A stretch of 64,000 nt of DNA, taken from the NCBI GenBank assembly GCA_040387795.1, contig JAZKDC010000003.1:97033-161032 (forward strand), read 5' to 3'. Source of the DNA: Verrucomicrobiota bacterium. Lineage in GTDB: Bacteria > Verrucomicrobiota > Verrucomicrobiia > Verrucomicrobiales > V1-33. A program made the position numbers and the translations under genes. The notes below the pieces were generated by a model. That model was given only the letters and a program-made list of their open reading frames with translations, did no database searches and was not told the origin of the DNA. Positions 1,349 through 20,700 of this stretch are shown piece by piece. Every line of letters begins with the position of its first letter. Within the stretch, counting starts at the first letter, position 1.

Positions 1349-2044
1349 ATGCCGCTGCATCCTGTCTCTGACTATCTTGATGTGATCCACACGCCGTTTC
1401 CGCGCCTGTTTGAGGGCATCGGGGAAGTGTGGGAGGCCCTGCCCCGGATCGGGCCCTTTTTGAAGGAATGGCTGGAACCCTCGGTGGAAGGCGACATCCG
1501 CGGGGATATCCACATTGAAGGACCGGTCTTTATTGGCCCGGGGGCGCAGATCATGCATGGGGCCGTGCTGCTGGGGCCGGTTTATATTGGCGCGGGGACT
1601 TTTGTGGGACCGGGCTGCTATTTGCGGCCGAACACCATCGTCGGGGAGAACGTGATCATCGGGAATTCCTGCGAGTTGAAAAACTGCATCGTGTCGGACA
1701 GCGCCGAAATCCCCCACTGGAATTATGTGGGGGACTCCCTGATCGGCCACAAAGCGCACCTCGGCGCCGGGGTGATCCTGTCCAACTGGCGGCACGACCA
1801 TGGCAGCATTCCGGTGCTGGACGGGCGGGCGGAGGGCGGGAAAATCCACACCGGCCTGCCCAAGTTCGGCGCGGTGATCGGCGACTACGCGGACCTCGGC
1901 TGCCATGCGGTCCTGAATCCCGGCAGCCTGATCGGCCGCCGCAGTGTGGTGTATGGCGGCGTGGTCTGGCGCGGCGGAGCCTTGCCGGCGGACCGGATTG
2001 TGAAATTGCGTCAGGACGTCGAAATCACGGAGCGGCGGGCATAG
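1349..2044 (+). CDS. Left-handed beta-helix (GlmU C-terminal-like) acyltransferase
   Basis: Hexapeptide repeats; ELKN, HWNYVGDS and LGAG motifs of the GlmU LbH domain; no N-terminal nucleotidyltransferase domain; start uncertain (1337 or 1349). Confidence 0.75.
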   Translation: MPLHPVSDYLDVIHTPFPRLFEGIGEVWEALPRIGPFLKEWLEPSVEGDIRGDIHIEGPVFIGPGAQIMHGAVLLGPVYIGAGTFVGPGCYLRPNTIVGENVIIGNSCELKNCIVSDSAEIPHWNYVGDSLIGHKAHLGAGVILSNWRHDHGSIPVLDGRAEGGKIHTGLPKFGAVIGDYADLGCHAVLNPGSLIGRRSVVYGGVVWRGGALPADRIVKLRQDVEITERRA

Positions 2045-2058
2045 TCAGGATCGCGCCG

Positions 2059-3063
2059 TTATTTGCCGGTTCCGGGAGCGAAATCCGCAGGCTTCAATCC
2101 TTTTTTCGCTCCGTTGAAGCCGTATTTGGAGGGAGTGAACGTCCCGCTGATCCCCACGTCGGCCTTGGCGGGCACTTCCATGCCGAGGGACCAATACACG
2201 CCATTCACCACGAGACGGCGCAGGTCCTCACTGACAAAATCCGTGGCCGATCCCATGGTGGTGGTGAACACCTTGTTGGTGACCCCGCTCTCCTGTTTGA
2301 AATCGCGGACCCAGGCGACGGGCATCATGGGCGAATTCACGCCCTGTTCGACTTGGTCAGTGGCGCGCTTTTTGGAATAGGCTGCCGGAGGATCGGAAGG
2401 CGCCATGCCTTTGAGCACCTGACCCCGCAGGAGAATGGTGGCATCGGCCGGGGGATAGGCTTCATAGACGTCGGTGTCCCCGAAGACATGAGTGACGCCC
2501 CGGAGGACCGGATGGGCGGCATGCGCGGGCTCGATCACCCCGCGGGTCGCTTCCACCTTGTGGTTGCCCCAGTGGCTCACCCAATCCTCGCCGACCACAT
2601 TTTTTCCGAATTTATTGTAGGACTTCCAAGGGGAGCTGTCGGGGAACTTGAAGGCATGGGTGCTGGTGCGCAGCGCAATAATTGGTTTGCCAGCTTTGAA
2701 GGCCTTGTCGAAGCGGGCCATCGCCGCATCCTCCCACTGCCGCCAGCGCAGCAGGATCACGATGGCATCGGCCGAATCCAGCGCTGCGGAACCGCTCAAG
2801 GTGGTATTTACATTCGGGTCCACGGTGCCGTCCTTGCCAGTCGCAAAACAAACCGAAGTCTTGAAGCCGTGTTTGCCGCTGAGGATTTTGGCCAGCACCG
2901 GCAGGCATTCCTCGCCGCGGTATTCCTCGTCCCCACTCAGGAAAACCACATGTTTTCCCTGCCCCGGACCGGCCTTGGCCTCAAAGGTGACCGCCCCCTC
3001 CTGGGCACGGGCGCCGGAGAGCGTTAGAGCAGCGGCAGCGAGGAATAAGAAATATGGTTTCAT
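2059..3063 (-). CDS. Secreted ThuA-like (class I glutamine amidotransferase-like) protein
   Basis: Signal peptide MKPYFLFLAAAALTLSGARA; SGDEEYR, RTSTHAF, PVAW and FTTTMG motifs typical of PVC ThuA-domain proteins. Confidence 0.75.
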   Translation of the reverse strand: MKPYFLFLAAAALTLSGARAQEGAVTFEAKAGPGQGKHVVFLSGDEEYRGEECLPVLAKILSGKHGFKTSVCFATGKDGTVDPNVNTTLSGSAALDSADAIVILLRWRQWEDAAMARFDKAFKAGKPIIALRTSTHAFKFPDSSPWKSYNKFGKNVVGEDWVSHWGNHKVEATRGVIEPAHAAHPVLRGVTHVFGDTDVYEAYPPADATILLRGQVLKGMAPSDPPAAYSKKRATDQVEQGVNSPMMPVAWVRDFKQESGVTNKVFTTTMGSATDFVSEDLRRLVVNGVYWSLGMEVPAKADVGISGTFTPSKYGFNGAKKGLKPADFAPGTGK

Positions 3064-3222
3064 GGGATTGGGGAAAAAAAGCAGCAGTGCTTCCCTGGAA
3101 CGTGGCCGGACGGGGGCGCGTTTCATCGGATGCAGCCCACGTATTGCGCAAAGTTATATGTTCTATTTCCATCTTGTCATCTGGACAAGCGCCCGCCGGC
3201 ATGGTTCTCTCGCCCCTTCCGC

Positions 3223-3657
3223 ATGAGCACCCCAGCCCCTTCCAAAAAATACCTGACCGCTGACGACGCCAAACACATCGCCCTCCCCTGGTGCGCGGTG
3301 GCAGAGTTCGTCTCCGTGGAAAATGCCGGCAGTCAGGACCTGTATCTCTGCCGCGCCACTTTCCCGGCGCATGAAGCCCACCTCTTCCACTATCATCCCG
3401 GCCGGGAGGAGATCATCTACGTGCTCGAAGGCCAGGCCGAACAGTGGGTGGGGGAGGAAAAGAAACTCCTCGGCCCTGGGGAAATGGCCCTGATCCCCGC
3501 CGGCATGCCGCACATGACCCTGAATCCCGGGCCGGCTCCCCTCAAATTCCTCGCCATCCTCAACAACATCCGCGGTCCCGAACCCATGGTGGTGGACTGC
3601 TTCCGCGAGGAACCGTGGGTCAGCCACTTCACTCCGATCGAGTATCCGCCGGTCTGA
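3223..3657 (+). CDS. Cupin domain protein
   Basis: HLFHYH...EEIIYVLEG and IPAGMPH cupin motifs. Confidence 0.85.
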   Translation: MSTPAPSKKYLTADDAKHIALPWCAVAEFVSVENAGSQDLYLCRATFPAHEAHLFHYHPGREEIIYVLEGQAEQWVGEEKKLLGPGEMALIPAGMPHMTLNPGPAPLKFLAILNNIRGPEPMVVDCFREEPWVSHFTPIEYPPV

Positions 3658-3731
3658 TCCCGCCCCTCCGCCGGCTCCCTTCCGTGCCGCGGCCATTTCA
3701 ACCTTACCACTCAACCCACCCACTTAAAATT

Positions 3732-4622
3732 ATGCCCAACCCCTGGACCGGAAAAGGAAACCCTTACACCCGTGAGGAAGTCATCGAACGCCTGCGTGCC
3801 GTCACGGCCAAAGGCGACGCCATCATTGCCGCCGGCGCGGGCACCGGAATCAGTGCCAAATTCATCGAAAAAGGCGGCGCTGACCTGATCATCATCTACA
3901 ACAGCGGCCGCTTCCGCATGATGGGCCACGGATCCACCGCCGGCATGATGGCGTATGGGGACGCCAATGCCATCGCCATGGAAATCGGCGAATACGAAGT
4001 CCTCCCTGTCGTCGAGGAATGCCCCGTGATCTGCGGGGTCCACGCCACCGACCCGCGCCGCCGGATGTGGCACTGGCTCGGCAAGGTCAAGGAAATGGGC
4101 TTCTCCGGCGTCAACAATTTCCCCACCCACACCATCATCGACGGCCATTTCCGCGGCGTGCTGGAAGAAACCGGCATGAGCGTGGTCAAGGAATATGAAA
4201 TGGTGGCCCTCGCCCGCCGCATGGATCTCTTCAGCGTGGTGTATGTCGGCAGCCCGCAGGAAGCCATCGAAATGGCCAAGGCCGGAGCCGACGCCATCAT
4301 TGCCCACGTCGGCACCACCATCGGCGGCAGCATCGGCGTCACCAATGCCCTCGTGCCCTGGGATGAAACCATCAAACGCACTCAGGACATCATCGACGCC
4401 GCCCGCACCGTGCGGAAGGACATCTTTTTCCTCTGCCACGGCGGTCCGATCAATACCCCGGAAGACGCCAAACGCGTCATGGGAGCCACCGATGCGGTCG
4501 GATTTGTCGGTGCCAGCAGCCTTGAACGCATGGGCGTGGAAGCCTCGCTGACCAACCTGACCCGGGAATTCAAAGCCCTGAAAGCCCCGGCGGCAGAGGC
4601 TTTCATGAAAGGCCAGGCCTGA
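3732..4622 (+). CDS. TIM-barrel phosphoenolpyruvate hydrolase-like protein (Tm-1-associated TIM barrel)
   Basis: GAGTGISAK, IYNSGRFRM, NFPT, HGGPI and GASSLER motifs. Confidence 0.85.
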   Translation: MPNPWTGKGNPYTREEVIERLRAVTAKGDAIIAAGAGTGISAKFIEKGGADLIIIYNSGRFRMMGHGSTAGMMAYGDANAIAMEIGEYEVLPVVEECPVICGVHATDPRRRMWHWLGKVKEMGFSGVNNFPTHTIIDGHFRGVLEETGMSVVKEYEMVALARRMDLFSVVYVGSPQEAIEMAKAGADAIIAHVGTTIGGSIGVTNALVPWDETIKRTQDIIDAARTVRKDIFFLCHGGPINTPEDAKRVMGATDAVGFVGASSLERMGVEASLTNLTREFKALKAPAAEAFMKGQA

Positions 4623-4646
4623 AATCCGCCTTGAATTCAACCGATC

Positions 4647-4678
4647 AAAGAAGCCCGGGACCTCCCGGGCTTCTTTTT
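4647..4678 (+). terminator. Intrinsic terminator
   Basis: AAAGAAGCCCGGGA-CC-TCCCGGGCTTCTTTTT hairpin with T-run after the TIM-barrel gene. Confidence 0.8.
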
Positions 4679-4842
4679 GCCGGTTTGAATCCAGCCTGAT
4701 TTCCCTACGGCGACGGCCCTGGGCAAGGCCCGGCAAAGTCATTTCTTTGCGCAATCAGGCGGTCCATCCGGCCAGATCAATCCCAGCCTCCCCCTCGCCC
4801 CTGCACTTGCACTTGGCGGGGGAATCGCCACAGTCGGCCCCG

Positions 4843-6615
4843 ATGATGTTTGAGAAAGGCGCCCAGTCAGGCGAGGAAATGGTTCTCGTGGGCATCGGTG
4901 TGTCCCCAGGGATCGCCCGGGGGCCGGTGCATCTGACGACAGATGTTTTCGAAATCCCGGAACTGGAGGAAATCCCGGAAGATGCCGTCGAGCGTGAAGT
5001 GCTCCGGCTGCAAACCGCCTTGGAAACGACACGGCGCCAGCTGGAAAACATGCGCGACCGCATCGCCAGCGAGATCGGGACGAATGATGCGGATATCTTT
5101 GATGCCCACCTGCTGATGCTGGAGGACCGGTCGGTGCTGGATGAGGTTTTCTCCCGCATCCGCAAAAAAGCCCAAAAAGCGGAAGGCGCCTTTTACGGCG
5201 TGATGGCCCGCTACGTGGAGACGCTACGGCGGATCGGAGATGAATATTTACGGGAACGCACCGTGGATATCGAAGATGTGGCCCGCCGGGTCGTCCGGAA
5301 TCTGCGCGGCACCGTCCTGGAACTGGCTCCCGCCGAGCCCCATGTGCTCCTGAGCACCGAACTGACGCCCAGTGACACGGCCGTAATGGACCGCGCTACG
5401 GTGCTGGGATTTGCCACGGAAGGCGGCAGCCACACCAGCCACAGCACCATCATGGCACGGTCGATGGGCATTCCCGCGGTGGTGGGGATTCCTGACCTCT
5501 CGACGCGTTTTCACACCGGTCAGGATGCCCTGCTGGATGGTTACGGCGGCCTGCTGATCATCAATCCCAGCGAGGAAACCCTTGCGGCCTATGCCGTCAC
5601 CCGCCGCAAAAAAGCCGCCCTCGAACGGCATCTGCGCGAAATGGTGGACCTGCCTGCGGAAACCGTGGACGGGAAACGGATCGTGCTCTCGGCGAATATT
5701 GAGTTTGAAAGTGAGATGGTGGAGGTGAATGCCTGGCGGGCGGAAGGCATCGGCCTCTACCGCACCGAGTTTTTCTTTATCAACCGCACCTCCCTGCCCA
5801 CGGAGGATGAGCAGGCCGAAAATTATGCCCGGATCGCCAGCGCCGCCGGACCGGAGGGGGTCATCATCCGAACTTTGGATGTCGGGGGGGACAAACTGCA
5901 CAGCCTGCACGACAGCCTGAACGAAACCAATCCGTTCCTCGGCTGGCGCGGCATCCGGGTTTCCCTCAAGCGCCGCAAACTCTTCAAATCCCAGCTCCGC
6001 GCCATCCTGCGGGCCAGTGCCGTGGGCCGGGTGCGCGTCATGTTTCCCATGATTTCCTGTGTGGAGGAACTCCGGGAAGCGCGGGCCATTCTGGCCGAGT
6101 GTCAGGATGAACTCCGGAAGGAAGGCGTGGTCTTCGACACCAACATGGAAGTAGGAGCCATGATCGAGGTGCCCAGTGCCGCCCTCACCGCCGATACCCT
6201 CGCCAAGGAAGTCGATTTCTTCAGCATCGGCACCAACGACCTGATCCAATACACTCTCGCGGTGGACCGGGGCAATGAAATGGTGGCCGATCTCTATCAA
6301 CCCTGCCACCCGGGCATCCTCAAGCTGCTGAAAAGCGTCAGCGATGCCGCCCGCCGCGCCGGGATCTGGACCGGTGTCTGCGGGGAAATGGCCAGCGACA
6401 TCATGCTGACCCCGCTGATGGTGGGCCTCGGGTTTGCGGAACTGAGCATGTCCACGCCCCAGCTCCCCATGGTCAAATACGCCATCCGGAAGCTCCCTTC
6501 CGCCCGTTGCGTGGCCCTGCTGGACGAAGCCCTGACCCTCGGCGAAGCTTCGAAAATCCGCGACCGCTGCCGGGAAGTTGCTTTGGAATATTACAGCGAA
6601 CTTTTCGTCACCTAA
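4843..6615 (+). CDS. ptsI: PTS enzyme I, phosphoenolpyruvate-protein phosphotransferase
   Basis: TSH phospho-His motif, GLYRTEF, NPFLGWRGIR, SIGTNDL, CGE. Confidence 0.95.
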   Translation: MMFEKGAQSGEEMVLVGIGVSPGIARGPVHLTTDVFEIPELEEIPEDAVEREVLRLQTALETTRRQLENMRDRIASEIGTNDADIFDAHLLMLEDRSVLDEVFSRIRKKAQKAEGAFYGVMARYVETLRRIGDEYLRERTVDIEDVARRVVRNLRGTVLELAPAEPHVLLSTELTPSDTAVMDRATVLGFATEGGSHTSHSTIMARSMGIPAVVGIPDLSTRFHTGQDALLDGYGGLLIINPSEETLAAYAVTRRKKAALERHLREMVDLPAETVDGKRIVLSANIEFESEMVEVNAWRAEGIGLYRTEFFFINRTSLPTEDEQAENYARIASAAGPEGVIIRTLDVGGDKLHSLHDSLNETNPFLGWRGIRVSLKRRKLFKSQLRAILRASAVGRVRVMFPMISCVEELREARAILAECQDELRKEGVVFDTNMEVGAMIEVPSAALTADTLAKEVDFFSIGTNDLIQYTLAVDRGNEMVADLYQPCHPGILKLLKSVSDAARRAGIWTGVCGEMASDIMLTPLMVGLGFAELSMSTPQLPMVKYAIRKLPSARCVALLDEALTLGEASKIRDRCREVALEYYSELFVT

Positions 6616-6643
6616 CCCTGTCCGCAATCCCGGATTGCCCCTG

Positions 6644-7738
6644 ATGAACCGACGCCATTTTATTGCCAGTCTCGGCGGAGGAGCAATCTCGCTCACCCAC
6701 GTTCAAGCCGTCTCCACGGCTGCCGCCGCCGGGCTGCGGGAAAAACTGGAAGCTCTGCGCCAAAAGCACCAGGTCCCTGCCCTCGCCGCCGCCCGCCTCG
6801 GTTTGGATGGCCTCCTGATTCAATCCGACACGGGATTCCGCAAAGCCGGCGGCAGCACTCCCGTCACCGCGTCCGATCTTTGGCATTACGGCTCCATGAC
6901 CAAAGCGATGACGGCCACCCTGCTCGCCACTTATGTGCAGGAGGGCCGGCTGCAATGGGACGATCCACTGGGCAAGTTGATCCCGGAATCCTGCCGGAAA
7001 GCACACCCCCGCACCAAGGACATCACCGTCCTGCAACTCCTGCAGCACCGCTCCGGCCTGCGGGCCAATCTGCTCTCCTGGTGGCACCTCCCCCGCGCCG
7101 ATCAACGCGGGGAAATCCTGCGTCTCGCCGCCCCCCCGGGAACCGATTGGCCCGCGCCCGGCTCCTATTTGTACAGCAATGTCGGTTACGCCATTGCCGG
7201 CCACCTTGCGGAAAAACTCGACCGCCAGTCTTGGGAAAAATTGCTGGAAAAACGTCTCTTCCGACCCCTGAAAATTACCGCCGGACAAGGCCCGGCGGGC
7301 ACCGAAGGCAAAGAAGACCAGCCTTGGCCGCACGATTCCAAAGGCAACCCGCTTCCTGCCAACGGACCAGGTTGTGACAATCCGCCGTCACTCGGTCCCG
7401 CCGGACGCGTCCACGCCAGTCTGGAAAACTACGCCCGTTTCGCCGCTGACCAATTGCGCGGAGCCGCCGGCCAATCCGCCCTGCTCCCGCCCGCGTTGTA
7501 TAAAATCCTGCACACCCCCGACCCCGCCAGCCACTATGCCTGCGGCTGGGGCCTTGCCGACCGTCCCTGGGCCGGCGGCCGGTGCCTCACGCACACCGGC
7601 AGCAACAACGCCAACTTCTCCGTTGTCTGGCTGGCCCCGGAAAAAGCCTTCGGGGTGTTCGCCACCTGCAACCAGGGAGGCCCGGCCGCCGCCGAAGCGT
7701 GTGATGCCGCCTGTTCCCTGATGATTCAGCACGGCTGA
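6644..7738 (+). CDS. Tat-exported serine hydrolase (beta-lactamase class C-like)
   Basis: MNRRHF twin-arginine signal; SMTK (SxxK), YSN and HTG motifs. Confidence 0.85.
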   Translation: MNRRHFIASLGGGAISLTHVQAVSTAAAAGLREKLEALRQKHQVPALAAARLGLDGLLIQSDTGFRKAGGSTPVTASDLWHYGSMTKAMTATLLATYVQEGRLQWDDPLGKLIPESCRKAHPRTKDITVLQLLQHRSGLRANLLSWWHLPRADQRGEILRLAAPPGTDWPAPGSYLYSNVGYAIAGHLAEKLDRQSWEKLLEKRLFRPLKITAGQGPAGTEGKEDQPWPHDSKGNPLPANGPGCDNPPSLGPAGRVHASLENYARFAADQLRGAAGQSALLPPALYKILHTPDPASHYACGWGLADRPWAGGRCLTHTGSNNANFSVVWLAPEKAFGVFATCNQGGPAAAEACDAACSLMIQHG

Positions 7739-8033
7739 ATTCCGCAGCAGCGGAAGAACCCCGGATTTTGCCAGGAGTAATCCGGTTCTGCCTGACCAAG
7801 GGGCACTTCCGCAGGCAAACGTCATGTCAAGACACATATCCGTCAGGTTCCCTGCTCAGAAATCCCTGCCTGGCGCCATGGGAGCGGTGCCTGACCGACC
7901 CGGGCTGAACGGAATCCCACATCTTACACCAGTAATCTGACAAATCCGGTGATTGTGCTGGCCAATAGCACGCGGAGTGCTGATGTTTCTGTTATCTGCA
8001 TTCCCCGGCGTTGCTCCAACGTCTCCCCCTCTG

Positions 8034-10010
8034 ATGAAACTCCCCCTCTCATTGATCTTCGCCGGATCCCTCGCGGCCCCAGCCTCCCTCCATGCGGCAT
8101 TGGACGAGTGGCAGGCGGCGGTCGATTCCGCCGGCACCACTCCTTCCGCAACCTATATCAAAGGCATCTCGGGACCGGCCATCTCCGGATTCGAGCCCGT
8201 CGTCCTCGATGTTGGCACCCTGACCGGCCCGCGCTCGTTTGAGTTCATAGTAAATGCGGGGGCCGCCGGAAGCTCCTCCGCCCTGATGGGGCTGGCCGGC
8301 CTGCAGGGCCTGAAATTCGAACAGAATTTCGAAACTGGTCATGTGGGGATCACCGACTATGGCATTGCGGACCACGACTCCCCGGTGCCGGGCCCGCTGC
8401 ACCAGGATAGCCAGATCGTTTTCACCTGCGACGGCACGGACACCCGGCTCTATATCAACGGCGCTGCAGTGCACACCTTCACCGGAGTGGACCTGGTGCT
8501 GTCAGGACAACAATCGCTCGGGGGTGTTTCCGACGGCGCAGGGGGACCTGTGTTTGACCGGCTGGACGGGCATATCCTCGGATTTGCCAGCTACGCCTCC
8601 GAACTGACGGCCGCAGAGATCGCTGCCCATCATACCGCCTTCAAGGTGGGCAGCACGCCGGTCTCCTTCGCCAACTGGCGCAATGCGGTGACCTCCGGCG
8701 CCATCCCGCCTGCCAATACCGTGTTCAGTCCGATCTCAGGCATGGCTCCCGTCCTCAGCAATCTGGGGGAACTCTCCGGCCCCCGGACTTTTGAATTCCT
8801 CGTCAATGCCGGTGAGGTGGGACGATCCGAAGCGCTGATGGGACGGTCCGGCGTGCAGGGATTGAAGTTCGACCAATGGGACAGCACCGGCGTGCTGGGT
8901 CTGACGGCCTTCGGGGTCGCAGATCACGTCACCACCGTGCCCAGCCCCTACAACACCCTGACTCAAATCGTCTGGGTTTCCCAGGACACCGGCACGGACG
9001 TCTACATTGATGGGGTGTGGCAACAGACCCTTGATGGGGTGCCCATTTCGCTGACCGGGTTCGTCGCCCTCGGCGCCGCCGCCACCATCACGGGGCTGGA
9101 GGGTGTCACCGTCTACCGCGATCCGCTCGACGGGCAGGTGCTGCGCTTCGCCAGCTATGACAATGCCCTCACGGAAGCCGAGGTGAACACCCACTATCAA
9201 TCCTTCCAGCAGGACGGTGGCGCACAGGTATTCAGCGCCTGGCAGGCCACGGTGAACAGTGGAAGTCCCGCCACCGTCATCCTCGAAGCCACCAATGGCA
9301 GCGAGGGGAGGAGCGTGGATGTGGGAACCCTCAGCGGGGGGCGTTCATTCGAATTTATCGTCAATGCCGGTCTCGGCAACGCCAGCGGTTCGCTGCTCGG
9401 AGGAAATAGCCAGGCCCTCAAATTCGAACAGTGGCAGGACACCGGCAGCCTCGGGATCACGGAATATGGCGTGGCCGATTTCAATTCCTCCATTCCCGCG
9501 CCGGAACTGATCGACACCCACATCGTTTATTCCTCCGATGGCACCGACACCCAGCTGTTTGTAAATGGAGTGTTGAGTTATACCTTCACCGGGGTGGCGC
9601 TCACCGGCACCGGCCAGCAGGGACTGGCCACCGCCGCCCAATTGCCGATCATCACTGCCAGTTACTTCGACCGCCTTGACGGGCACATCCTCGGGTTTGC
9701 CAGTTATGCGGAGGCGCTCCCGCCGGCGGAGATTGCCGCGCATTATGCCGCGCTGCTCAACACCACGCCGGTGGCGCCGGGTCCGTTTGTCATCACCGGC
9801 TTCAGCCGGAATGCCACCACCCGGGCCATCACCCTGACGTGGAGTTCCGATGACGGTGCGACCTACCGGATCGACTATAGCGAGACCCCCGGCACCTTCG
9901 CCAACACCGCAGTGGCCGGCATTCCGGCCACCCTTGGCGGCACCACCTCCCGCACCTTTGCGGCCCCTTCCGCAGCGGAACGGCTCTTCTTCCGGATCGT
10001 CCGCCTCTGA
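8034..10010 (+). CDS. Secreted protein with three tandem LamG/ConA-like domains and a C-terminal FFR-ending domain
   Basis: Signal peptide; three ~185-aa repeats (RSFEFIVNAG...LKFEQ...YGVAD...LDGHILGFASY); C-terminus ...RLFFRIVRL. Confidence 0.8.
   Translation: MKLPLSLIFAGSLAAPASLHAALDEWQAAVDSAGTTPSATYIKGISGPAISGFEPVVLDVGTLTGPRSFEFIVNAGAAGSSSALMGLAGLQGLKFEQNFETGHVGITDYGIADHDSPVPGPLHQDSQIVFTCDGTDTRLYINGAAVHTFTGVDLVLSGQQSLGGVSDGAGGPVFDRLDGHILGFASYASELTAAEIAAHHTAFKVGSTPVSFANWRNAVTSGAIPPANTVFSPISGMAPVLSNLGELSGPRTFEFLVNAGEVGRSEALMGRSGVQGLKFDQWDSTGVLGLTAFGVADHVTTVPSPYNTLTQIVWVSQDTGTDVYIDGVWQQTLDGVPISLTGFVALGAAATITGLEGVTVYRDPLDGQVLRFASYDNALTEAEVNTHYQSFQQDGGAQVFSAWQATVNSGSPATVILEATNGSEGRSVDVGTLSGGRSFEFIVNAGLGNASGSLLGGNSQALKFEQWQDTGSLGITEYGVADFNSSIPAPELIDTHIVYSSDGTDTQLFVNGVLSYTFTGVALTGTGQQGLATAAQLPIITASYFDRLDGHILGFASYAEALPPAEIAAHYAALLNTTPVAPGPFVITGFSRNATTRAITLTWSSDDGATYRIDYSETPGTFANTAVAGIPATLGGTTSRTFAAPSAAERLFFRIVRL
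8100..9758 (+). repeat. Three intragenic domain repeats (approx. 8100-8643, 8667-9206, 9231-9758)
   Basis: Recurring motifs SFEFIVNAG / TFEFLVNAG / SFEFIVNAG and LDGHILGFASY / LDGQVLRFASY / LDGHILGFASY. Confidence 0.85.
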
Positions 10011-10070
10011 TTCCCTTTCCCCTCCAGCGTCCATCCCAACACAACACAACACCTGCAAAAATATCGTCCC

Positions 10071-10757
10071 ATGAAAAAAGCCATCACCCTCTGTCTGGTT
10101 ACCAGCGCCCTGCTCCTCCCCCTTCAGGAGGCGGGAGCCACCCTCACCCTCTGGCAGGCTGAAGTGAATGCCGGCAGCGTTCCGGCGGCGACCGTGTTCA
10201 GTGAAGTCTCCGCGCCTGTCCTATCGAACATCGGCACCCTGACCGGCGGCCGGGCCTTTGAATTTATTGTCAATGCCGACCCGTCTGCTACCGGTTCCAT
10301 CTCGTCGGCCCTGCTCGGCACCCAATCGGTCGAGAATGGCCGTCAGGGGCTGAAGTACGAACAATACAACGATACCGGCAATCTTGGGATGACTGCCTTC
10401 GGGGTGGCGGACTATGAGACGACCATCGCGGCCCCCATCAACTCCAACACCCAGGTGGTGTTCACTTCCGATGGCATCAAGACAGATCTCTATCTGAATG
10501 GCGTCTTTCAAACGAGCTTTGCGGCCGCCCTGGCCCTGACCGGCGAGCAGGGACTCGGAGCGGCCTATGCGCCGGCGACGTCGGCCTTCTTTGATATCCT
10601 CCCAGGAAAAATCCTCGGATTTGCCAGCTATGACAGTGATCTGGGAGCGGCGGAGATCCTGACACACTACAACGCTTTCGCCGCCGTACCCGAAGCCGGC
10701 AGCAGCATTCTTTTCCTCACCGGAATCGCCGGGCTGGCCCTCCGCCGGCGGCGTTGA
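10071..10757 (+). CDS. PEP-CTERM-type sorting-domain protein with one LamG-like domain
   Basis: Signal peptide; same domain as the upstream gene (RAFEFIVNA, GLKYEQ, ILGFASY); C-terminal VPEAGSSILFLTGIAGLALRRRR. Confidence 0.85.
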   Translation: MKKAITLCLVTSALLLPLQEAGATLTLWQAEVNAGSVPAATVFSEVSAPVLSNIGTLTGGRAFEFIVNADPSATGSISSALLGTQSVENGRQGLKYEQYNDTGNLGMTAFGVADYETTIAAPINSNTQVVFTSDGIKTDLYLNGVFQTSFAAALALTGEQGLGAAYAPATSAFFDILPGKILGFASYDSDLGAAEILTHYNAFAAVPEAGSSILFLTGIAGLALRRRR

Positions 10758-10781
10758 CCGGCGTGGTTCCCCAGCCACCTG

Positions 10782-13700
10782 ATGAGAGCGCTCCCTCCAG
10801 TCCGGGCAGGCCAGGCATGGTTGCGGCACGGCCGCGCCCGCCTTTGCGGCCTGGCCGCGCTGGTGCTGGCGGGGGCAGCTCCGGCAGGGGCCTCGTTGGC
10901 GGACTATGACACCGTCATTTCACGGGAGGCGGCAGGCGGGCTCATTCCAGCGGCGACCCTGACGGATGCGATCACGTTTCCCGGCAATCAGAATGCAGCG
11001 TTCAACTTCGGCCCGGTGACCGGAGACGGCACCTTCGAGTGCATCGTCGAACCCTCCGGCCTCGCCGCCAGTGCCTACCTGGCAGTGGGCTCAAATACCC
11101 AAAGCAACCTTCGGCTCCAGCAATATAACAACACCGGGGAACTGGGCATGACCCTGCTGGGGGTGGCAGACTATCGCTTCAGTCCCGCCGTCCCGGCCCC
11201 GGCAGAAACAGCACATCTGGTGTGGCTGTGGGACGGTGCGGGCACCATGCAGATGTTTGTGAACGGCACCCCCGCCGGAAGCCGGAGCGGGGTCGCCTCA
11301 CCATTCGCGTTACCGACGGGCCAGGGCTGGCTGGGGGCCAATCCCAGCAGCGGCGAGGGAATGTCAGGCACCGTCTTCCGCGTCACCACCTACGATTCCC
11401 GCCTCTCCGTCGAAGCGATCCGGCGGCATGCCGAAGCCTTCCTCGGCATCCTGAGTCCCCCGGTCATTTCCTCGTTCTCCGCCGATCCGCCTGCCGCGGC
11501 CAGCGGGGCCACGGTCACGCTGTCCTGGACTGTCTCCGGGGCCGACACCCTCACGCTGGACGGCACTGCGGTGACCGGATTGTCGGGAAAAGTCATCACC
11601 CTGACAGCCAATGGCTCCCACACCCTGGCAGCGGCCAATGCCCATGGAACCACCACGCGCACCCTGCTCATTCCCATGGTGCAGGCGGCCAGCCATGTGG
11701 TCATCAATGAATTCATGGCCTCCAACCAATCCGGCCTGACAGACGAAACCGGAGCCTTCCCGGACTGGCTGGAACTCTACAATCCCACCAGCAGTGCGGT
11801 GAATCTGGCAGGCTATTACCTCACCGACAATCCCGCCAACCCGCAACAATGGGCCCTGCCCGCCGTTTCACTGCCCGCCGGAGGGTATCTCGTGATCTTC
11901 CTTTCCGGCCGGGATACCCCGCCGCTGGCGGCCCCGTGGCACGCCAACTTCCGCCTCAACAAAGACGGGGAATACCTCGCCCTGACCACTGCGTCCGGAG
12001 TGGTTCATGAATTCTCCCCCGCCTTTCCTCCGCAGGAAGACGACCTCCCGTGGGCCCTGACCGGCGGAGATCCCGGTCTGGCTGGATACGCGGAACGGCC
12101 AACCCCGGGCACCGCCAACGATCCGGCCCTGCCCCGGCCGGCGAGGGTGCAGTTTTCCCAGCCGGGCGGGCTGTTGCGCGGACCGGTGAGCCTGACCCTT
12201 TCCTCCGGCTCCCCCGGTGCACAAATTTTCTATCAAATCAACCAGGCACCTGCCTCCGCCTACACCAGCCCCATTGAAATCACCGCGACGGCGCAGGTCC
12301 GGGCGTGGGCGGAACAGGCGGGCCAGCGCAGCGCGGAGACCACCACCGCGTGGGTGAAGCTGGCCCCGGATCTGGCCACCTATCAATCACCGCTGCCGGT
12401 GCTCATGATCGATAACTTCGCCAGCGGAGCGGTACCGCAGAAAGGCTGGAGCGGCAACGGCTCCGGAGTCCAGCAGGTGCCCCGGCAGGCAGCTGCCTGG
12501 CTGGCCTGGGAAAGGTCAGGAGCCACCAGCACCACTGCCAGCGAACCGGCCTTCTCCTCGCGCATCGGTCTCCGGGGGCGAGGCGCCTTCTCCAGCTCGT
12601 GGCGGCAGAAACCCTACTCCGTGGAGGCCATGGACGCGTCCGGCAGTGAACTGGATGTCAGCGTGCTCGGGATGCCGGCCCATTCCAACTGGGTGCTCTA
12701 CTTCCCTGATCCCGGGGCCGACAAGGACCCCACCCTGCTCTTCAACACCTTTGTTTATGACCTCGCGCGGCGCCTCGGCCATCCTTCGCAGCGGTTCCGC
12801 TGGGTGGAATTGTTCGTCAACGAGGACGGAGGCGACCTCTCCCTGAACGACCGCCGCGGTGTCTATGCGGTGCTCGAAAAGGTCTCCCGCGGAGCCGAAC
12901 GCCTCGACTTCTCCCGGCTCAGCGCGGACGGCCAGCAGGGCGGCTGGCTGCTCAGCCTCAACCGGATGGATGCCATCCCGGAAACCGGATGGCCCGCGCT
13001 GAATGGAACCACCACTCCTTCTTTTTTCCGCACTGCCGGGGCCAACCGCCTCCAGGAAACGCAGCCTGACAATCCCGCCACCGGCGGCGACGACGAACCG
13101 AAACAAAGCAACGGTTTCCTCAATTTCGACAATCCCGGGGGTTACACCATCCTCCCCGCCCAACGGGCCGCGGTCCAGAACTGGTTCCGCCAGTTTGAGG
13201 ACGTCCTCTACGGCAGCACCTGGCGCGATCCCGCAACAGGTTACCGGCAATGGCTGGATGCGGACGACTTCGCCGGCTATTTTGTCTTCAATGAGCTGAC
13301 CAAAAACGGCGACGGAATGCTCATCTCCATGTTTCCCTGGAAAGGCGATGACGGCAAACTGCGCATGGGTCCGGTCTGGGACTACAATTATGCCAGCTAT
13401 TACGCCGGGGGCGGCGCGACCGGCAGCCTGCGCTGGCGCGGAGACCGGATCTGGTACGCCCGCCTCTTTGCCGATCCGGATTTCCTGCAGCTCTACACCG
13501 ACCGCTGGTTCGCCTGGCGACAGGGCGCCATGAGCAATGCCGGCATCACGGACGTGATTGACGATCAGGCCGCGGAAATCACGGCGGCCAAAGCAGTCGC
13601 CCAAGGCATCTCCAGCGCCGCGGCATGGAATAGCAGCCTCACGCAAATGAAGTCGTGGCTGACCCAGCGGGCCACCTGGGTGGATGGTCAATACGCCGCC

Positions 13701-14768
13701 CGGCCGGTGCTCAGTCCCGCCGGAGGGATTGTCAGCAGCGGGCAGGAGATTGCCCTCACCGCCGTGGGCGGCGTGCCATGGCACACCACGGACCGCAGCG
13801 ATCCGCGCCTGGCGGGCGGCACCGTTTCCCCCGCCGCCTCCAGCACCGGCCTCCACACCATCGCCGCAGACACCAGAATAACTGCCCGAAACCGCGTCTC
13901 CGCCACCCGCTGGAGCGCCCCGGCCAGCGCCATCTACGTCACCGGCGCCATTCCGGCCACCGCCTTGAACCTGACCTTCTCCGAAATTCACTATCATCCG
14001 GCCCCACCTGACGCCGCGGAGTTCGCCGCCGGCTTCACCGATCCCGGGGATTTTGAGTTTGTGGAACTGCTGAATGCCGGGGCTGACAAAATCAGCCTGG
14101 CCGGACTGCGCCTCGTCAAAACCGGCCCTGTCCAGGGGATCGATTACCGCTTCGACGAGGGAACGCAGTGGTCGCTCGCGCCCGGCGCACGGCTGCTGCT
14201 CGTACGGAACATTCCGGCCTTCACCCTGCGCTACGGCCCGGGCCTGCCGGTGGCGGGGGAATTCGCCGGCCAGCTCGGCAATGGCGGCGACACCCTGACC
14301 CTGCTCGATGCTGCCAGCGCCCCCCTGCTCAACCTGACTTGGACGGACATCACGCCGTGGCCGTCAGCCCCGGACGGCGCTGGCTACAGCCTGACCCTCC
14401 TCTCCGGCACCACCCCGTTGTCCGCCCCCAATTCTGTTTCCTGGCGCGCCAGCACCGCCCGGGGAGGCTCCCCCGGCACCAGCGACAGCCTTCCCCTGAC
14501 GGATGGCGGTCTCGCCAGCTACGCCTTCGGCACGGCTCCCTCCACGGTGACTTTCAGCAATGGCACCCTGTTCGTTACCCAGCCCCGCCGCCCCGGCAGC
14601 GATCTCGTCAGTGTCGCCCTCGAACACTCCCTGGACCTCACCACGTGGGTCCAGACCGGACCGGAGGAATTCGCCACGGAACCGGATGCCGACGGCATCA
14701 CCCGCATCCGGCGGCAACTCCCCGCCGGCGCCAAGGGCTTTTTCCGCTGGCACCTGCGCAGCCGGTAA
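10782..14768 (+). CDS. Secreted CotH-family kinase with N-terminal LamG-like domain, lamin-tail (LTD) and FN3-associated domains
   Basis: VVINEFMASN...DWLELYN and FSEIHYHP...FEFVELLN (LTD); RGRGAFS, KPYSVE, MGPVWDYN (CotH); C-terminal GFFRW. Confidence 0.85.
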   Translation: MRALPPVRAGQAWLRHGRARLCGLAALVLAGAAPAGASLADYDTVISREAAGGLIPAATLTDAITFPGNQNAAFNFGPVTGDGTFECIVEPSGLAASAYLAVGSNTQSNLRLQQYNNTGELGMTLLGVADYRFSPAVPAPAETAHLVWLWDGAGTMQMFVNGTPAGSRSGVASPFALPTGQGWLGANPSSGEGMSGTVFRVTTYDSRLSVEAIRRHAEAFLGILSPPVISSFSADPPAAASGATVTLSWTVSGADTLTLDGTAVTGLSGKVITLTANGSHTLAAANAHGTTTRTLLIPMVQAASHVVINEFMASNQSGLTDETGAFPDWLELYNPTSSAVNLAGYYLTDNPANPQQWALPAVSLPAGGYLVIFLSGRDTPPLAAPWHANFRLNKDGEYLALTTASGVVHEFSPAFPPQEDDLPWALTGGDPGLAGYAERPTPGTANDPALPRPARVQFSQPGGLLRGPVSLTLSSGSPGAQIFYQINQAPASAYTSPIEITATAQVRAWAEQAGQRSAETTTAWVKLAPDLATYQSPLPVLMIDNFASGAVPQKGWSGNGSGVQQVPRQAAAWLAWERSGATSTTASEPAFSSRIGLRGRGAFSSSWRQKPYSVEAMDASGSELDVSVLGMPAHSNWVLYFPDPGADKDPTLLFNTFVYDLARRLGHPSQRFRWVELFVNEDGGDLSLNDRRGVYAVLEKVSRGAERLDFSRLSADGQQGGWLLSLNRMDAIPETGWPALNGTTTPSFFRTAGANRLQETQPDNPATGGDDEPKQSNGFLNFDNPGGYTILPAQRAAVQNWFRQFEDVLYGSTWRDPATGYRQWLDADDFAGYFVFNELTKNGDGMLISMFPWKGDDGKLRMGPVWDYNYASYYAGGGATGSLRWRGDRIWYARLFADPDFLQLYTDRWFAWRQGAMSNAGITDVIDDQAAEITAAKAVAQGISSAAAWNSSLTQMKSWLTQRATWVDGQYAARPVLSPAGGIVSSGQEIALTAVGGVPWHTTDRSDPRLAGGTVSPAASSTGLHTIAADTRITARNRVSATRWSAPASAIYVTGAIPATALNLTFSEIHYHPAPPDAAEFAAGFTDPGDFEFVELLNAGADKISLAGLRLVKTGPVQGIDYRFDEGTQWSLAPGARLLLVRNIPAFTLRYGPGLPVAGEFAGQLGNGGDTLTLLDAASAPLLNLTWTDITPWPSAPDGAGYSLTLLSGTTPLSAPNSVSWRASTARGGSPGTSDSLPLTDGGLASYAFGTAPSTVTFSNGTLFVTQPRRPGSDLVSVALEHSLDLTTWVQTGPEEFATEPDADGITRIRRQLPAGAKGFFRWHLRSR

Positions 14769-17571: not shown

Positions 17572-17714
17572 CGCCACAGCGCGCAGTAGAGCGCTCGGCA
17601 AGGTCCTGAATCGATGGTCCGCGGACCAGGGGATTCCCTGATCAGGCCCGGTCCTACCGGGGCAATCTGACTAAAACGTTGCATTTTCCAACTGGCTTCG
17701 GCCATAAGGACGGA

Positions 17715-20700
17715 ATGCCCCTACCCGTCCCCCGTTCTGTGCTTCGAGCACTTCCCCCTCTGTTGGCCCTGTTGGGGACCCTTCCGGCAGGGGCTGAAAT
17801 CGTGATCAACGAACTGATGGCCAGCGGTTCGGACCGCTTGCTGCGTTGGTCGGCGGCCGGAGTGCCTACTCTCGGCACGGGCACGCCATGGTATGCCAGC
17901 GGGTTCAGCGATGCAAGCTGGAGTACCGGGACCGGTCCCTTTGGATTCGGCACCTTCACCAATGTTTCGCCGGCCCCGGCCATCACGACCAATACGGCGA
18001 CCCAGATGCAGAACCTGACGCCGACCCTGTACCTGAGAAAGACGTTTACGGTTTCCGCCAGCGATGCCGGGCGGGCCGACGCCCTGAGTTTCGACGTGCA
18101 GTTCAACGATGGTTTCGTTTGCTATCTCAATGGCGTGGAGGTGATCCGCCGCAATGCCGGCCCCGCCAATCAGTTTGTCTACCGCGACCAATTCGCCGCC
18201 TTCGGCACCCCGGCGAATACCGAGTCTACCACCACGCCGTACCTGCGCACCGAAACCCTGACGCTCGGCGCGGCCAACACCCGCCTCCTCTCCGGCACCA
18301 ATACCCTGGCGGTTCACGCGCTCAATTACTGGGAAACCACCAGCCTGCTGAACACCTCCACCAACGTGTTCGCCTCCATCAACAACCGCGACAATTTCTA
18401 TTTCAAAGGAGATCTCAAAATCACCGCGGCGCCGGCCGTCACCCTGGCGGCGAACAACACGGCGTGGCGTTATCTTCCCGGGGTGGTGGAACCCTCCGGC
18501 GGCCTCTATGATCCGACCCAGATTTTCCTAGCCAAACAAAATGCCCGCTGGGGCCGGCCCAGTTTTGATGACTCGGCCTGGAGCAGCGGGGCCTCCCCGC
18601 TGGGCGCGGGCACTCCTCCTGCCGGCGTCACTCTCGGGACCAATCTCACCCCGTCCATCCCGGGCCAATCCACCTCGCTCTACGCCCGCACGGTTTTTAC
18701 CGCGACGGCAGCCGATATCGCCGACCCGCTGATGCTGCAGCTTCTGATGGATTATGATGATGGATTTGTCGCCTATCTGAACGGCGTGGAAGTTGCCCGC
18801 TCCGGGATGGCGGAGGCGAATTCCTTCACGCCCCATAATGCGGTCGCCAGCGCCGCCCGCACCCCGGGCAGTTACACCACATACAATCTGGATCCGCCCG
18901 CCCGCCTGCTCATCCAGGGGCAGAACGTCTTTTCCGTCCAGATCCATAATGTCACACTCAACGACGCCGATCTCTTCTTCCGCGCCCAATTGCGCACCAA
19001 TTCCGCCGGCACCAACCGCACCCTCGTCACCCCCACCGGCATCTTCAATTATTTCGTTGGCATCGGGGAACCTGTGGAGTCCGAGGATGATGCCCTGGAA
19101 GACAACCCCGAAGCTCCTGACTCCGCGCTCGACTGGGTGGAACTGCATAACAATGGAACCGCGGCCGTTTCCCTGGGCAACTGGACCTTCAGCGACAGCG
19201 CTTCCCTGCCCGCCAAGTGGGCCTTCCCTCCGGAGGCCACCCTGCCCGCCGGAGGCTATCTGTTGCTGGCCTGCGATGACTTGAACATTACCGCCCCTGC
19301 CCCGGGAGGATTTTATCATACCGGCTTCAAGCTGGCCTCGCAGGGGGAATCCCTGGTGCTGCGCGACTCCCTCGGCACCATCGTCCAGCAAACCACCTTT
19401 CCCGCCCAGACTGCCTTCCAAAGTTATGGCCGCAGCGGGGACGGCAGTTACCGCTTCCATGATGCTCCGACCCCCGGGACGGCCAATGCCGGGGCGGTCC
19501 TGACAGGCAAGGTGGCGGCACCGGTGCTCAGCCTCGCCGGTGGCTTTTATCCGGGATCACGCACCGTCTCCTTTTCCTCCAGCACCCCCGGGGCCACCCT
19601 CCGCTATACCTTGAATGGCACCGAACCGACCGAAACCAATGGCACCGCCGGCACCACCGCGACCCTCAGCAGTTCGCGGGCCCTGCGCGTGCGCGCCTTC
19701 GCCGCCGCCCTGATTCCCAGCGACACCATCACCCGCACCTATCTGATTGCCGAACCGGTCTCCCGGCAGGGACTGCCCGCCCTGTGCGTGACCGGCGACG
19801 AGCAGCGCTCCCTTTATCAACCCTTCGGAGCCATGGCCATCAAGGGCGGGGCCTTTCCCAATTACATTGCCCCGCTTCCCACCAACAACAATGGCGTCTG
19901 GACCCAGACCGGAGCCACCGCGGGCACCCCCGCCGACCTGACGGCCTATAACAACCCCATCCACCGCGGCCGTTTCATTGAACGTCCGGCTCATCTGGAA
20001 ATCCTCCGGGCCGATGGCACCCCGGGGCCCAACATCGGATTCGGTCTCCGGGTTTCCGGCAGCGGCCACGCCCGGCCACGCTACAAGCTGACCAATCAGA
20101 ACCGCGCTCCGGGGGCCTCGCCCGCTCCCAACGATGGCGCGTGGAGTGCGACTTCCTTCACGGAAAAACCCTCCTTCAATTTCTTCTTCCGCGACGACTA
20201 TGGCGGCGATCCGCTGGAACACAGCCTCTTCCCTGACTATCCAGTCAATCAATTCCATGACGTCCGCGTGCGGGCCGGAAAAAACGATCCCAGCAATCCG
20301 TTTGTCGAGGATGAATTCATGCGCCGGGTCTTTATCAGCACCGGCCAGGAAGGCAGCCGCGGCATGATCAACACGCTATACGTCAACGGCATCTACAAAG
20401 GCTACTACAACCTCTGCGAACACATCCGAGAGGATTTCCTCCAACGGCACCACGGCGGCACCAATGCCTGGGACGTGCGACAGGTCACGGCCATTGCGAG
20501 TGGCGATGGCCTCGCCTTTCAGGAAATGCTGACCTATATCCGCAACAACCCGCAAGGCACGCTTTCCAACTACCAGGGCATGAAGACCCGGCTGGATATG
20601 GTGAATTTTGCGGACTATTTGATTGTGAATCTGCTGGGCGTCACCGGCGACTGGCCGCACAACAACTTTGTGTGCGCCCGCGAGCGCTCCGTGAATGGCC

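Follow-up and report, generated by a model that had tools for sequence, protein, structure and literature searches.

Three adjacent genes in a stretch of 64,000 nucleotides (nt), referred to here as the window, from a Verrucomicrobiota bacterium (Verrucomicrobiales, V1-33; GCA_040387795.1; a genome of 6.4 Mb labelled G000) encode exported proteins that share one LamG-fold domain, although they are otherwise built differently. The genes were named T (8034-10010), S (10071-10757), and K (10782-14768), with all coordinates given for the window and all three genes on the + strand. T contains three copies of the domain, S one copy in front of a PEP-CTERM tail, and K one copy in front of a CotH kinase-fold domain. 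The linkage of the three genes is conserved in related genomes, and a second trio with the same architectures but its own LamG subfamily is present in the same genome. The explanation we favor, with somewhat less than even confidence, is that the matched domain addresses T, S, and K to one ligand, most likely a glycan of the own cell surface or of an exopolysaccharide matrix, and that the set is functionally linked.

The three genes are separated by 60 nt (T-S) and 24 nt (S-K) in the list of open reading frames (ORFs). This confirmed the tight spacing and common orientation described in an earlier reading made from the sequence alone (the sequence-only reading), and every domain motif quoted there was found in the translations of T, S, and K. 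T (658 amino acids [aa]) is composed of a signal peptide, three repeats of the domain positioned by alignments at 8097-8648, 8661-9212, and 9225-9761, and a short C-terminal beta-sandwich ending in RLFFRIVRL. Its open frame begins at position 7953, but the ATG at 8034 was chosen because it yields a normal signal peptide; T orthologues in related genomes are 650 to 720 aa long. S (228 aa) carries a signal peptide, one domain copy at 10137-10685, assigned by similarity to the T repeats and by the AlphaFold model, and the PEP-CTERM tail at 10686-10754. K (1,328 aa) is an exported multidomain protein of the CotH family with a divergent copy of the domain at its N terminus, aligned to 10893-11447. 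The signal peptides of all three proteins were judged by eye, with a basic N terminus, a subsequent run of hydrophobic residues, and a site resembling A-x-A as the criteria.

The domain is about 183 aa long, and the five copies were aligned over 169 to 179 columns. Identity was 40 to 51% among the T repeats and S, with S being 47 to 48% identical to the T repeats, and 29 to 32% between the K copy and the others (169 to 175 columns). K was connected to T and S by BLAST with E values of 1e-11 to 1e-18, which places this similarity above chance. The claim that one domain is common to the three genes in 3+1+1 copies was thus borne out by the five-copy alignment and BLAST. Pfam assigned Laminin_G_3 (PF13385, cut-off 27.6 bits) to T with 70.9 bits in three stretches and to K with 37.6 bits; S remained below the cut-off with 20.8 bits, but its homology to T is plain nevertheless. 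A profile of the five copies had strong matches in the own genome at these five copies only (E values of 5e-66 to 1e-83), plus two weak matches. As judged from these comparisons, the domain is a distinct Laminin_G_3 subfamily, confined in this genome to the T-S-K locus.

An AlphaFold2 model of the S domain, calculated from an alignment of 38 rows with copies from the own and related genomes, was a jelly roll with a framing helix at either terminus (pLDDT 97.4, pTM 0.93). The nearest solved folds found by Foldseek were pentraxins, the sialic-acid-binding lectin domains of sialidases (CBM40/NanB), and domain 4 of AbnA, all at probability 1.00, a TM score of about 0.6, and 10 to 17% identity. The ConA/LamG fold, for which a structure prediction had been proposed as a check, was therefore borne out by the model and Foldseek. 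Polar positions conserved in the domain are E42, Q76, T86, and D92. Such a domain may bind a ligand, which could be a glycan. Two other ideas about the copies were discarded. An origin from the template and variable repeats of a diversity-generating retroelement (DGR), considered with regard to a preprint that mentions CotH-like DGR targets, was ruled out because the copies are only 29 to 51% identical at the protein level. A pentraxin-like ring of five domains made from the 3+1+1 copies does not agree with the 2+1+1 copies of the second trio and was rejected.

Own hidden Markov models (HMMs) of the domain and of CotH served to map the genes in related genomes. T, S, and K are collinear in five genomes, four of the genus of the window and one of a second genus (G000, G005, G007, G008, and G020). 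Partial sets are T-K in G001, with S missing between them, and S-K in G006. S and K are divergent in G016, which belongs to a third genus, and in G023 a 728-aa LamG and PEP-CTERM protein is followed by K, with T on another contig. All three genes are kept on different contigs in G013 and G053, and S and K are both present but apart in G022 and G049. ORFs of the size of T, S, or K on short contigs of G004, G041, G047, and G050 were classed by ORF length only. Outside the family, G238 contains a 1,661-aa K-type protein (LamG, CotH, and C-terminal domain) and an S-type gene on another contig, and in G235, S precedes a protein with two repeats; G029 carries S as a tandem pair, with no CotH gene within the 14 kb examined. 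Outside the collinear clusters, the three genes are rearranged or dispersed in the family, yet mostly co-occurring.

The gene order is kept across genera at about 50 to 60% protein identity. The cluster in the window is flanked upstream by ptsI and a beta-lactamase-like gene and downstream by a gene for a small membrane protein, accB, and accC. These flanks are kept only in the near-identical G005 and G008, and other genes surround the cluster in G001, G007, and G020. Because the set is kept while the flanking genes change, T, S, and K travel together. The sequence-only reading had made its proposal depend on a gene order conserved elsewhere. The order was indeed found in five genomes of two genera, but the genes were dispersed in one genus. 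In a quick maximum-likelihood tree of 51 domain copies, all 13 K copies formed one clade on a long stem (SH-aLRT support of 99), and all 27 T copies formed one clade (support of 93) nested among the S copies and mostly grouped by repeat position. These clades indicate that the split between K and S and the triplication in T are old and have been maintained. Among 10 orthologues, the LamG copy of K has a mean column identity of 72%.

Two local irregularities were seen in these maps. In G008, a relative with about 92% identity, S is split into overlapping ORFs of 146 and 102 aa (contig C285, 10826-11490), a frameshift or an assembly error, with T and K intact. In G006 (1548-6053) and G013 (6047-10339), which belong to two genera, the K orthologue adjoins a protein of about 1,450 aa with 3-keto-disaccharide hydrolase, DUF7133, HEAT, and cytochrome c domains, an arrangement that may be a remnant of synteny or have come about by coincidence.

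A second trio is located in the own genome on contig C11 (150000-161500). It is composed of a 476-aa LamG and PEP-CTERM protein (local coordinates 316-1743, − strand), a 1,001-aa protein with CHRD, two LamG, and Ig domains (1832-4834, − strand), and a 2,123-aa protein with LamG, LTD (lamin-tail domain), CBM (carbohydrate-binding module), and CotH domains (4783-11151, + strand). The LamG domains scored 72 to 226 bits against each other within the C11 trio and 54 to 157 bits within the trio of the window, but the best score between the trios was 21 bits. The C11 subfamily occurs in 26 of the 38 genomes of the family, where its proteins again fall into three size classes; their genes are neighbors in some of these genomes and scattered in others. 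Chance duplication can hardly account for two trios that are matched independently and have the same set of architectures, and this is the main argument for a functional design.

LamG copies that match within a trio but not between the trios would also result from fitting interfaces. In this case, the copies would bind one another in a pentraxin- or SHBG-like manner, so that the anchored S and trivalent T would keep K at the surface, following a logic similar to that of cohesin and dockerin. The nearest solved folds include oligomeric pentraxins, S possesses an anchor, and the C termini of T and K are formed by another type of domain, all of which would agree with such docking. However, a shared ligand explains the matched copies equally well, and the K copy with its identity of about 30% has diverged further than a co-evolving homotypic interface suggests. 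Moreover, S-type proteins are widespread in genomes in which no K-type protein was found. Docking of the copies onto each other is clearly unlikely. A prediction of the complex between the LamG domains of S and K, done with two alignments, gave a score of 0.00 in both runs; it was performed without controls and is evidence neither way.

The continuation of the third gene into LTD and CotH domains, as stated in the sequence-only reading, was confirmed by Pfam, with both catalytic Asp residues intact. The N-terminal LamG copy of K is followed by a first lamin-tail domain (residues 301-407; 11682-12002), a CHB_HEX_C_1/Fn3_assoc-type domain (residues 461-521; 12162-12344; 28.7 bits for CHB_HEX_C_1), the CotH domain (residues 597-967; 12570-13682), a second lamin-tail domain (about residues 1062-1189; 13965-14348), and a C-terminal domain. 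CotH (PF08757) was matched over profile positions 1 to 322 with 117.1 bits at a cut-off of 23.8, and LTD (PF00932) with 84.6 bits at a cut-off of 34.3 in two stretches; the boundaries of the second LTD were taken from its motif. A phmmer search against the sequences in the PDB gave no match, either with the whole of K or with just the CotH region, but a profile of ten CotH paralogues from the own genome matched the CotH protein of Bacillus cereus (5jd9) with an E value of 1.3e-12. The putative catalytic residues D844 in NGDGM (13311-13313) and D867 in WDYNY (13380-13382) are the two Asp residues invariant in the paralogue alignment, and they align with NFDG and WDYD of 5jd9. In the K orthologues, the NGDG and WDYN motifs with both Asp residues are without variation (14 of 14). 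The two residues are 23 positions apart, which equals the spacing of D228 and D251 in B. subtilis CotH, an assignment that is based on spacing and motif and not on a direct alignment. Substitution of D228 or D251 is reported to inactivate B. subtilis CotH (PMC7821199). Judged from this conserved Asp pair, K is apparently a catalytically intact CotH phosphotransferase, and it may phosphorylate its target outside the cell.

K is one member of a large CotH expansion, with 40 Pfam matches in 37 ORFs of 900 to 3,263 aa in the own genome. Both Asp residues are kept in 31 of the 36 CotH ORFs that could be aligned. This count was obtained by HMM alignment, since a strict motif regular expression matched 6 of the 37 ORFs and was too strict.

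A kinase-fold protein encoded next to T and S could alternatively have these two proteins as its substrates. K would phosphorylate T and S, and the shared domain would recruit the substrate, as in the cotG-cotH-cotB arrangement of Bacillus. The cotH gene of B. subtilis is clustered with the genes of its substrates, cotB and cotG, according to PMC7821199; K has kept its catalytic Asp residues; and the order of the T, S, and K genes is tight and conserved. On the other hand, T does not contain Ser/Lys/Arg-rich repeats like those of CotB and CotG, in S only the RRRR tail could be counted, and both proteins are compact folded jelly rolls. Such a kinase would also need a source of ATP outside the cell, and G021 and G024 have K but neither S nor T. 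Phosphorylation of T and S by K was likewise rated as clearly unlikely.

The tail of S reads VPEAGSSILFLTGIAGLALRRRR, with VPEAG at its start, PEA instead of PEP in the motif position, a hydrophobic span, and the basic cluster RRRR. It passed TIGR02595 (19.3 bits; cut-off of 16) and was just under the cut-off of PF07589 (19.1 versus 20.7 bits); the motif is PEA, PEP, or PET in the orthologues. Since the genome encodes two exosortases (PF09721; 165.8 and 149.8 bits), S has its sorting machinery, and the PEP-CTERM assignment made from the sequence alone held. PEP-CTERM has been described as exopolysaccharide-associated sorting (PMC6491731, citing Haft 2006), and cotH-like genes beside Pel polysaccharide operons have been reported for non-sporeformers (bioRxiv 10.1101/768473). 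CotH and PEP-CTERM each have an independent link to exopolysaccharides, and we counted this in favor of a common glycan ligand of T, S, and K. S would present its single domain copy on the surface of the cell after PEP-CTERM/exosortase sorting. T, either soluble or in an outer layer, could use its three copies to cross-link the ligand or to bind it with avidity. K, with its LamG copy ahead of a CotH domain that has lamin-tail and glycan-module-like domains on its sides, would modify the common glycan or act next to it. In one genome of another genus (G049, C62:12000-25000), each of the two subfamilies is represented by a PEP-CTERM LamG gene (241 aa and 476 aa), the two lying within about 2 kb of each other, and this pair adjoins, in divergent orientation, a different CotH giant of at least 1,999 aa.

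The distribution of the subfamily was examined with the 38-row profile against 1.84 billion representative proteins. It matched 250 clusters with E values up to 1e-30, 4,756 with values up to 1e-10, and 26,892 with values up to 1e-3, the last figure covering the LamG superfamily more widely. Of the 150 best representatives, about 23 were proteins of about 220 to 250 aa with a PEP-CTERM-like tail (S type), and several were three-repeat proteins of about 650 to 670 aa (T type). The ESM Atlas contained many clusters of about 240 aa with LamG and PEP-CTERM, mostly from Verrucomicrobiota and Planctomycetota, and all named records with close relatives were uncultured Verrucomicrobiales or metagenome-assembled genomes of Verrucomicrobiota. 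Because S-type clusters are many and CotH appeared in 1 of the best 150, the S form is the common form of the subfamily and the fusion to CotH a local speciality. In the same family, the domain was found in 20 of 38 genomes at E≤1e-20, or in 15 of the 24 genomes of good quality, and 18 of the 38 contained none of T, S, and K. Order-wide, 31 of 251 genomes had the domain at E≤1e-25, distributed over the families as 19/37 (f1), 9/69 (f4), 1/68 (f5), 1/4 (f6), and 0/69 (f2). The sequence-only reading had been prepared to give way if the domain were a generic LamG without a link to CotH. This is partly the case, as S-type proteins without CotH are widespread and CotH is confined to 1 of the 150 clusters; yet the subfamily is a private one, and the set with K is conserved.

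Domain sharing between neighbors is not restricted to the two trios. In the own genome, four malectin-like copies occur in a 1,303-aa protein ahead of a CotH giant with the same N-terminal domain (C6:209000-222000), a CotH giant with discoidin domains lies opposite a discoidin (F5/8 type C) protein (C18:15000-27000), a LamG_3 protein precedes an LTD-LamG-CotH giant (C19:226000-237000), and an Ig-rich protein is located beside a CotH giant that has an Ig-type domain in common with it (C19:206000-217000). As a control, 48 giants of at least 900 aa with the C-terminal domain described below but without CotH according to the own HMM were inspected. Eleven of the 48 had a domain-sharing neighbor, which left about 7 of 44 after subtraction of two CotH partners and two giants with CotH in Pfam, compared to at least 6 of the 37 CotH ORFs with a domain-sharing non-CotH neighbor, about 16% in both cases. 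Sharing of domains with neighbors is a general habit of the secreted giants of this genome and gives no CotH-specific signal. Because the non-CotH giants show a similar rate, local duplication alone yields such pairs.

T, S, and K could thus be leftovers of local duplication and domain shuffling among modular secreted giants, with the ancestry of one domain in common but without any functional coupling. The similar rate of about 16% fits such an origin, as does the dispersal of the three genes in the genus g4, which includes G021 and G024 with K alone. S is also split in G008 and missing between T and K in G001. An origin without coupling does not readily account for a gene order kept across genera at about 50 to 60% identity with changed flanks, for the retention of all three genes when dispersed (G013 and G053), for the reappearance of all three architectures around another LamG subfamily that is matched independently, or for the strong conservation of the LamG copy of K (72% mean column identity). 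We therefore regard it as unlikely, with some probability left to it.

Besides the control, the dispersal in g4, and the genomes with K alone, some further results count against a common ligand of T, S, and K. The single representative with CotH among the best 150 clusters was an 868-aa fragment. With an identity of only about 30% to the copies of S and T, the K copy could differ from them in specificity. As a putative kinase, K would need a source of ATP outside the cytoplasm. A scan with consensus motifs, which is weak evidence on a putative single transcript, revealed neither a sigma-70-type promoter-like site between 7600 and 15500 nor a terminator-like site in the two gaps between the genes. 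Among the sequencing runs listed for the stretch, none was of RNA; a single DNA run contains it completely and may be the source sample. With these points considered, we still prefer the addressing of T, S, and K to a common glycan at the tentative level given above.

K also shares its C terminus with many other giants of the genome. A C-terminal domain of about 110 to 120 aa ends 124 ORFs of the own genome, and 124 of 131 HMM matches were located at most 12 residues from the end of the ORF. It is present in 25 of the 26 CotH ORFs found with the own HMM. The domain consists of a TSP3-like motif, DxDxDG...N-L-x-E-Y-A-x-G-x-x-P, followed by an Ig-like sandwich ending in R-x-F-x-R-L-R. In the window, it was found in K (residues 1229-1326; 14466-14759; E value of 2.5e-17 with the own HMM), in a second CotH giant (22977-23297), and in a weak, shortened form in T (9753-9998; 19.8 bits). 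The second CotH giant (17679-23306; 1,875 aa) is located 2.9 kb downstream of K and contains four LTD stretches and CotH. Pfam contained no match for the C-terminal domain, and its neighbors in the Atlas were clusters of "hypothetical" proteins from Verrucomicrobiota. An AlphaFold2 model reached a pLDDT of 77, and Foldseek found no match for it in the PDB at E≤1e-3. The domain is a candidate for a sorting or anchoring domain.

The neighbor pairs may also be part of a broader scheme, which we consider speculative and unlikely. Private lectin domains, LamG in the trios and malectin-like or discoidin-like domains elsewhere, would then be a general addressing code for the secreted CotH proteins of Verrucomicrobiales. 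Each set would have its own domain, carried by a surface protein with an exosortase anchor, by a multivalent secreted protein, and by the CotH phosphotransferase: the enzyme would be brought to one particular glycan or to its partners and would phosphorylate the matrix, with the phosphate perhaps provided by VTC/DUF4956. A single adjacent pair of VTC (polyphosphate-polymerase-like) and DUF4956 genes is present in the own genome (C18:242320-243803), not linked to the T-S-K locus. Among 14 control genomes, Bacteroides thetaiotaomicron, Corynebacterium glutamicum, and Methanosarcina acetivorans had matches to VTC, DUF4956, and CotH, and B. subtilis to CotH only. For pel loci of Gram-positive bacteria, an accessory set of cotH, polyphosphate-polymerase, and DUF4956 genes has been reported (bioRxiv 10.1101/768473). 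The own genome resembles this set in possessing the VTC and DUF4956 pair but differs from it in that the pair is away from T, S, and K.

In the literature searched, with limited coverage, no report of LamG or PEP-CTERM partners linked to a CotH gene was found, in agreement with the sequence-only reading, which had known of none. LTD-CotH giants, LamG proteins with PEP-CTERM, and exosortase sorting are known already; the new part is the conserved, twice-realized trio with a matched domain. The trio by itself reveals no new mechanism. Verrucomicrobiota, Planctomycetota, and other bacteria encode secreted CotH-type kinases in very large numbers, and the trio names a candidate target, scaffold, or substrate for one of them, while the second, independently matched trio permits a comparison by swapping specificities. 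If the three proteins do share a ligand, this would be a way for bacteria to send enzymes and structural lectins to a common component of the matrix.

Compared to known systems, K is similar to CotH of Bacillus (PF08757; PDB 5jd9/5jda) with respect to its CotH domain, both catalytic Asp residues, and the position of the kinase gene beside genes of candidate partners. It is different because it is a 1,328-aa exported multidomain protein of a non-sporulating bacterium of the Gram-negative type and one of 37 CotH ORFs, and because its neighbors, unlike those in cotG-cotH-cotB, are lectin-fold proteins without repeats rich in Ser, Lys, and Arg. With its backbone of LTD, CHB_HEX_C/Fn3_assoc, and CotH, K resembles the secreted LTD-CotH giants of the PVC group and of other bacteria, from which it is set apart by a private LamG subfamily in common with PEP-CTERM and multi-repeat proteins. 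S agrees with the substrates of PEP-CTERM/exosortase systems (TIGR02595, PF07589) in its motif, hydrophobic span, Arg cluster, and the exosortases of the genome, but its motif is PEA, it is under the Pfam cut-off, and its matched domain links it to a CotH enzyme.

In cellulosomes and polysaccharide-utilization systems, the same CBM is found on the scaffold and on the enzymes. T, S, and K differ from these systems in having a kinase-fold enzyme and neither glycoside hydrolases nor cohesin-dockerin pairs. They correspond to them in their central feature, one module, here with a putative binding function, on an anchored protein, a multivalent protein, and an enzyme.

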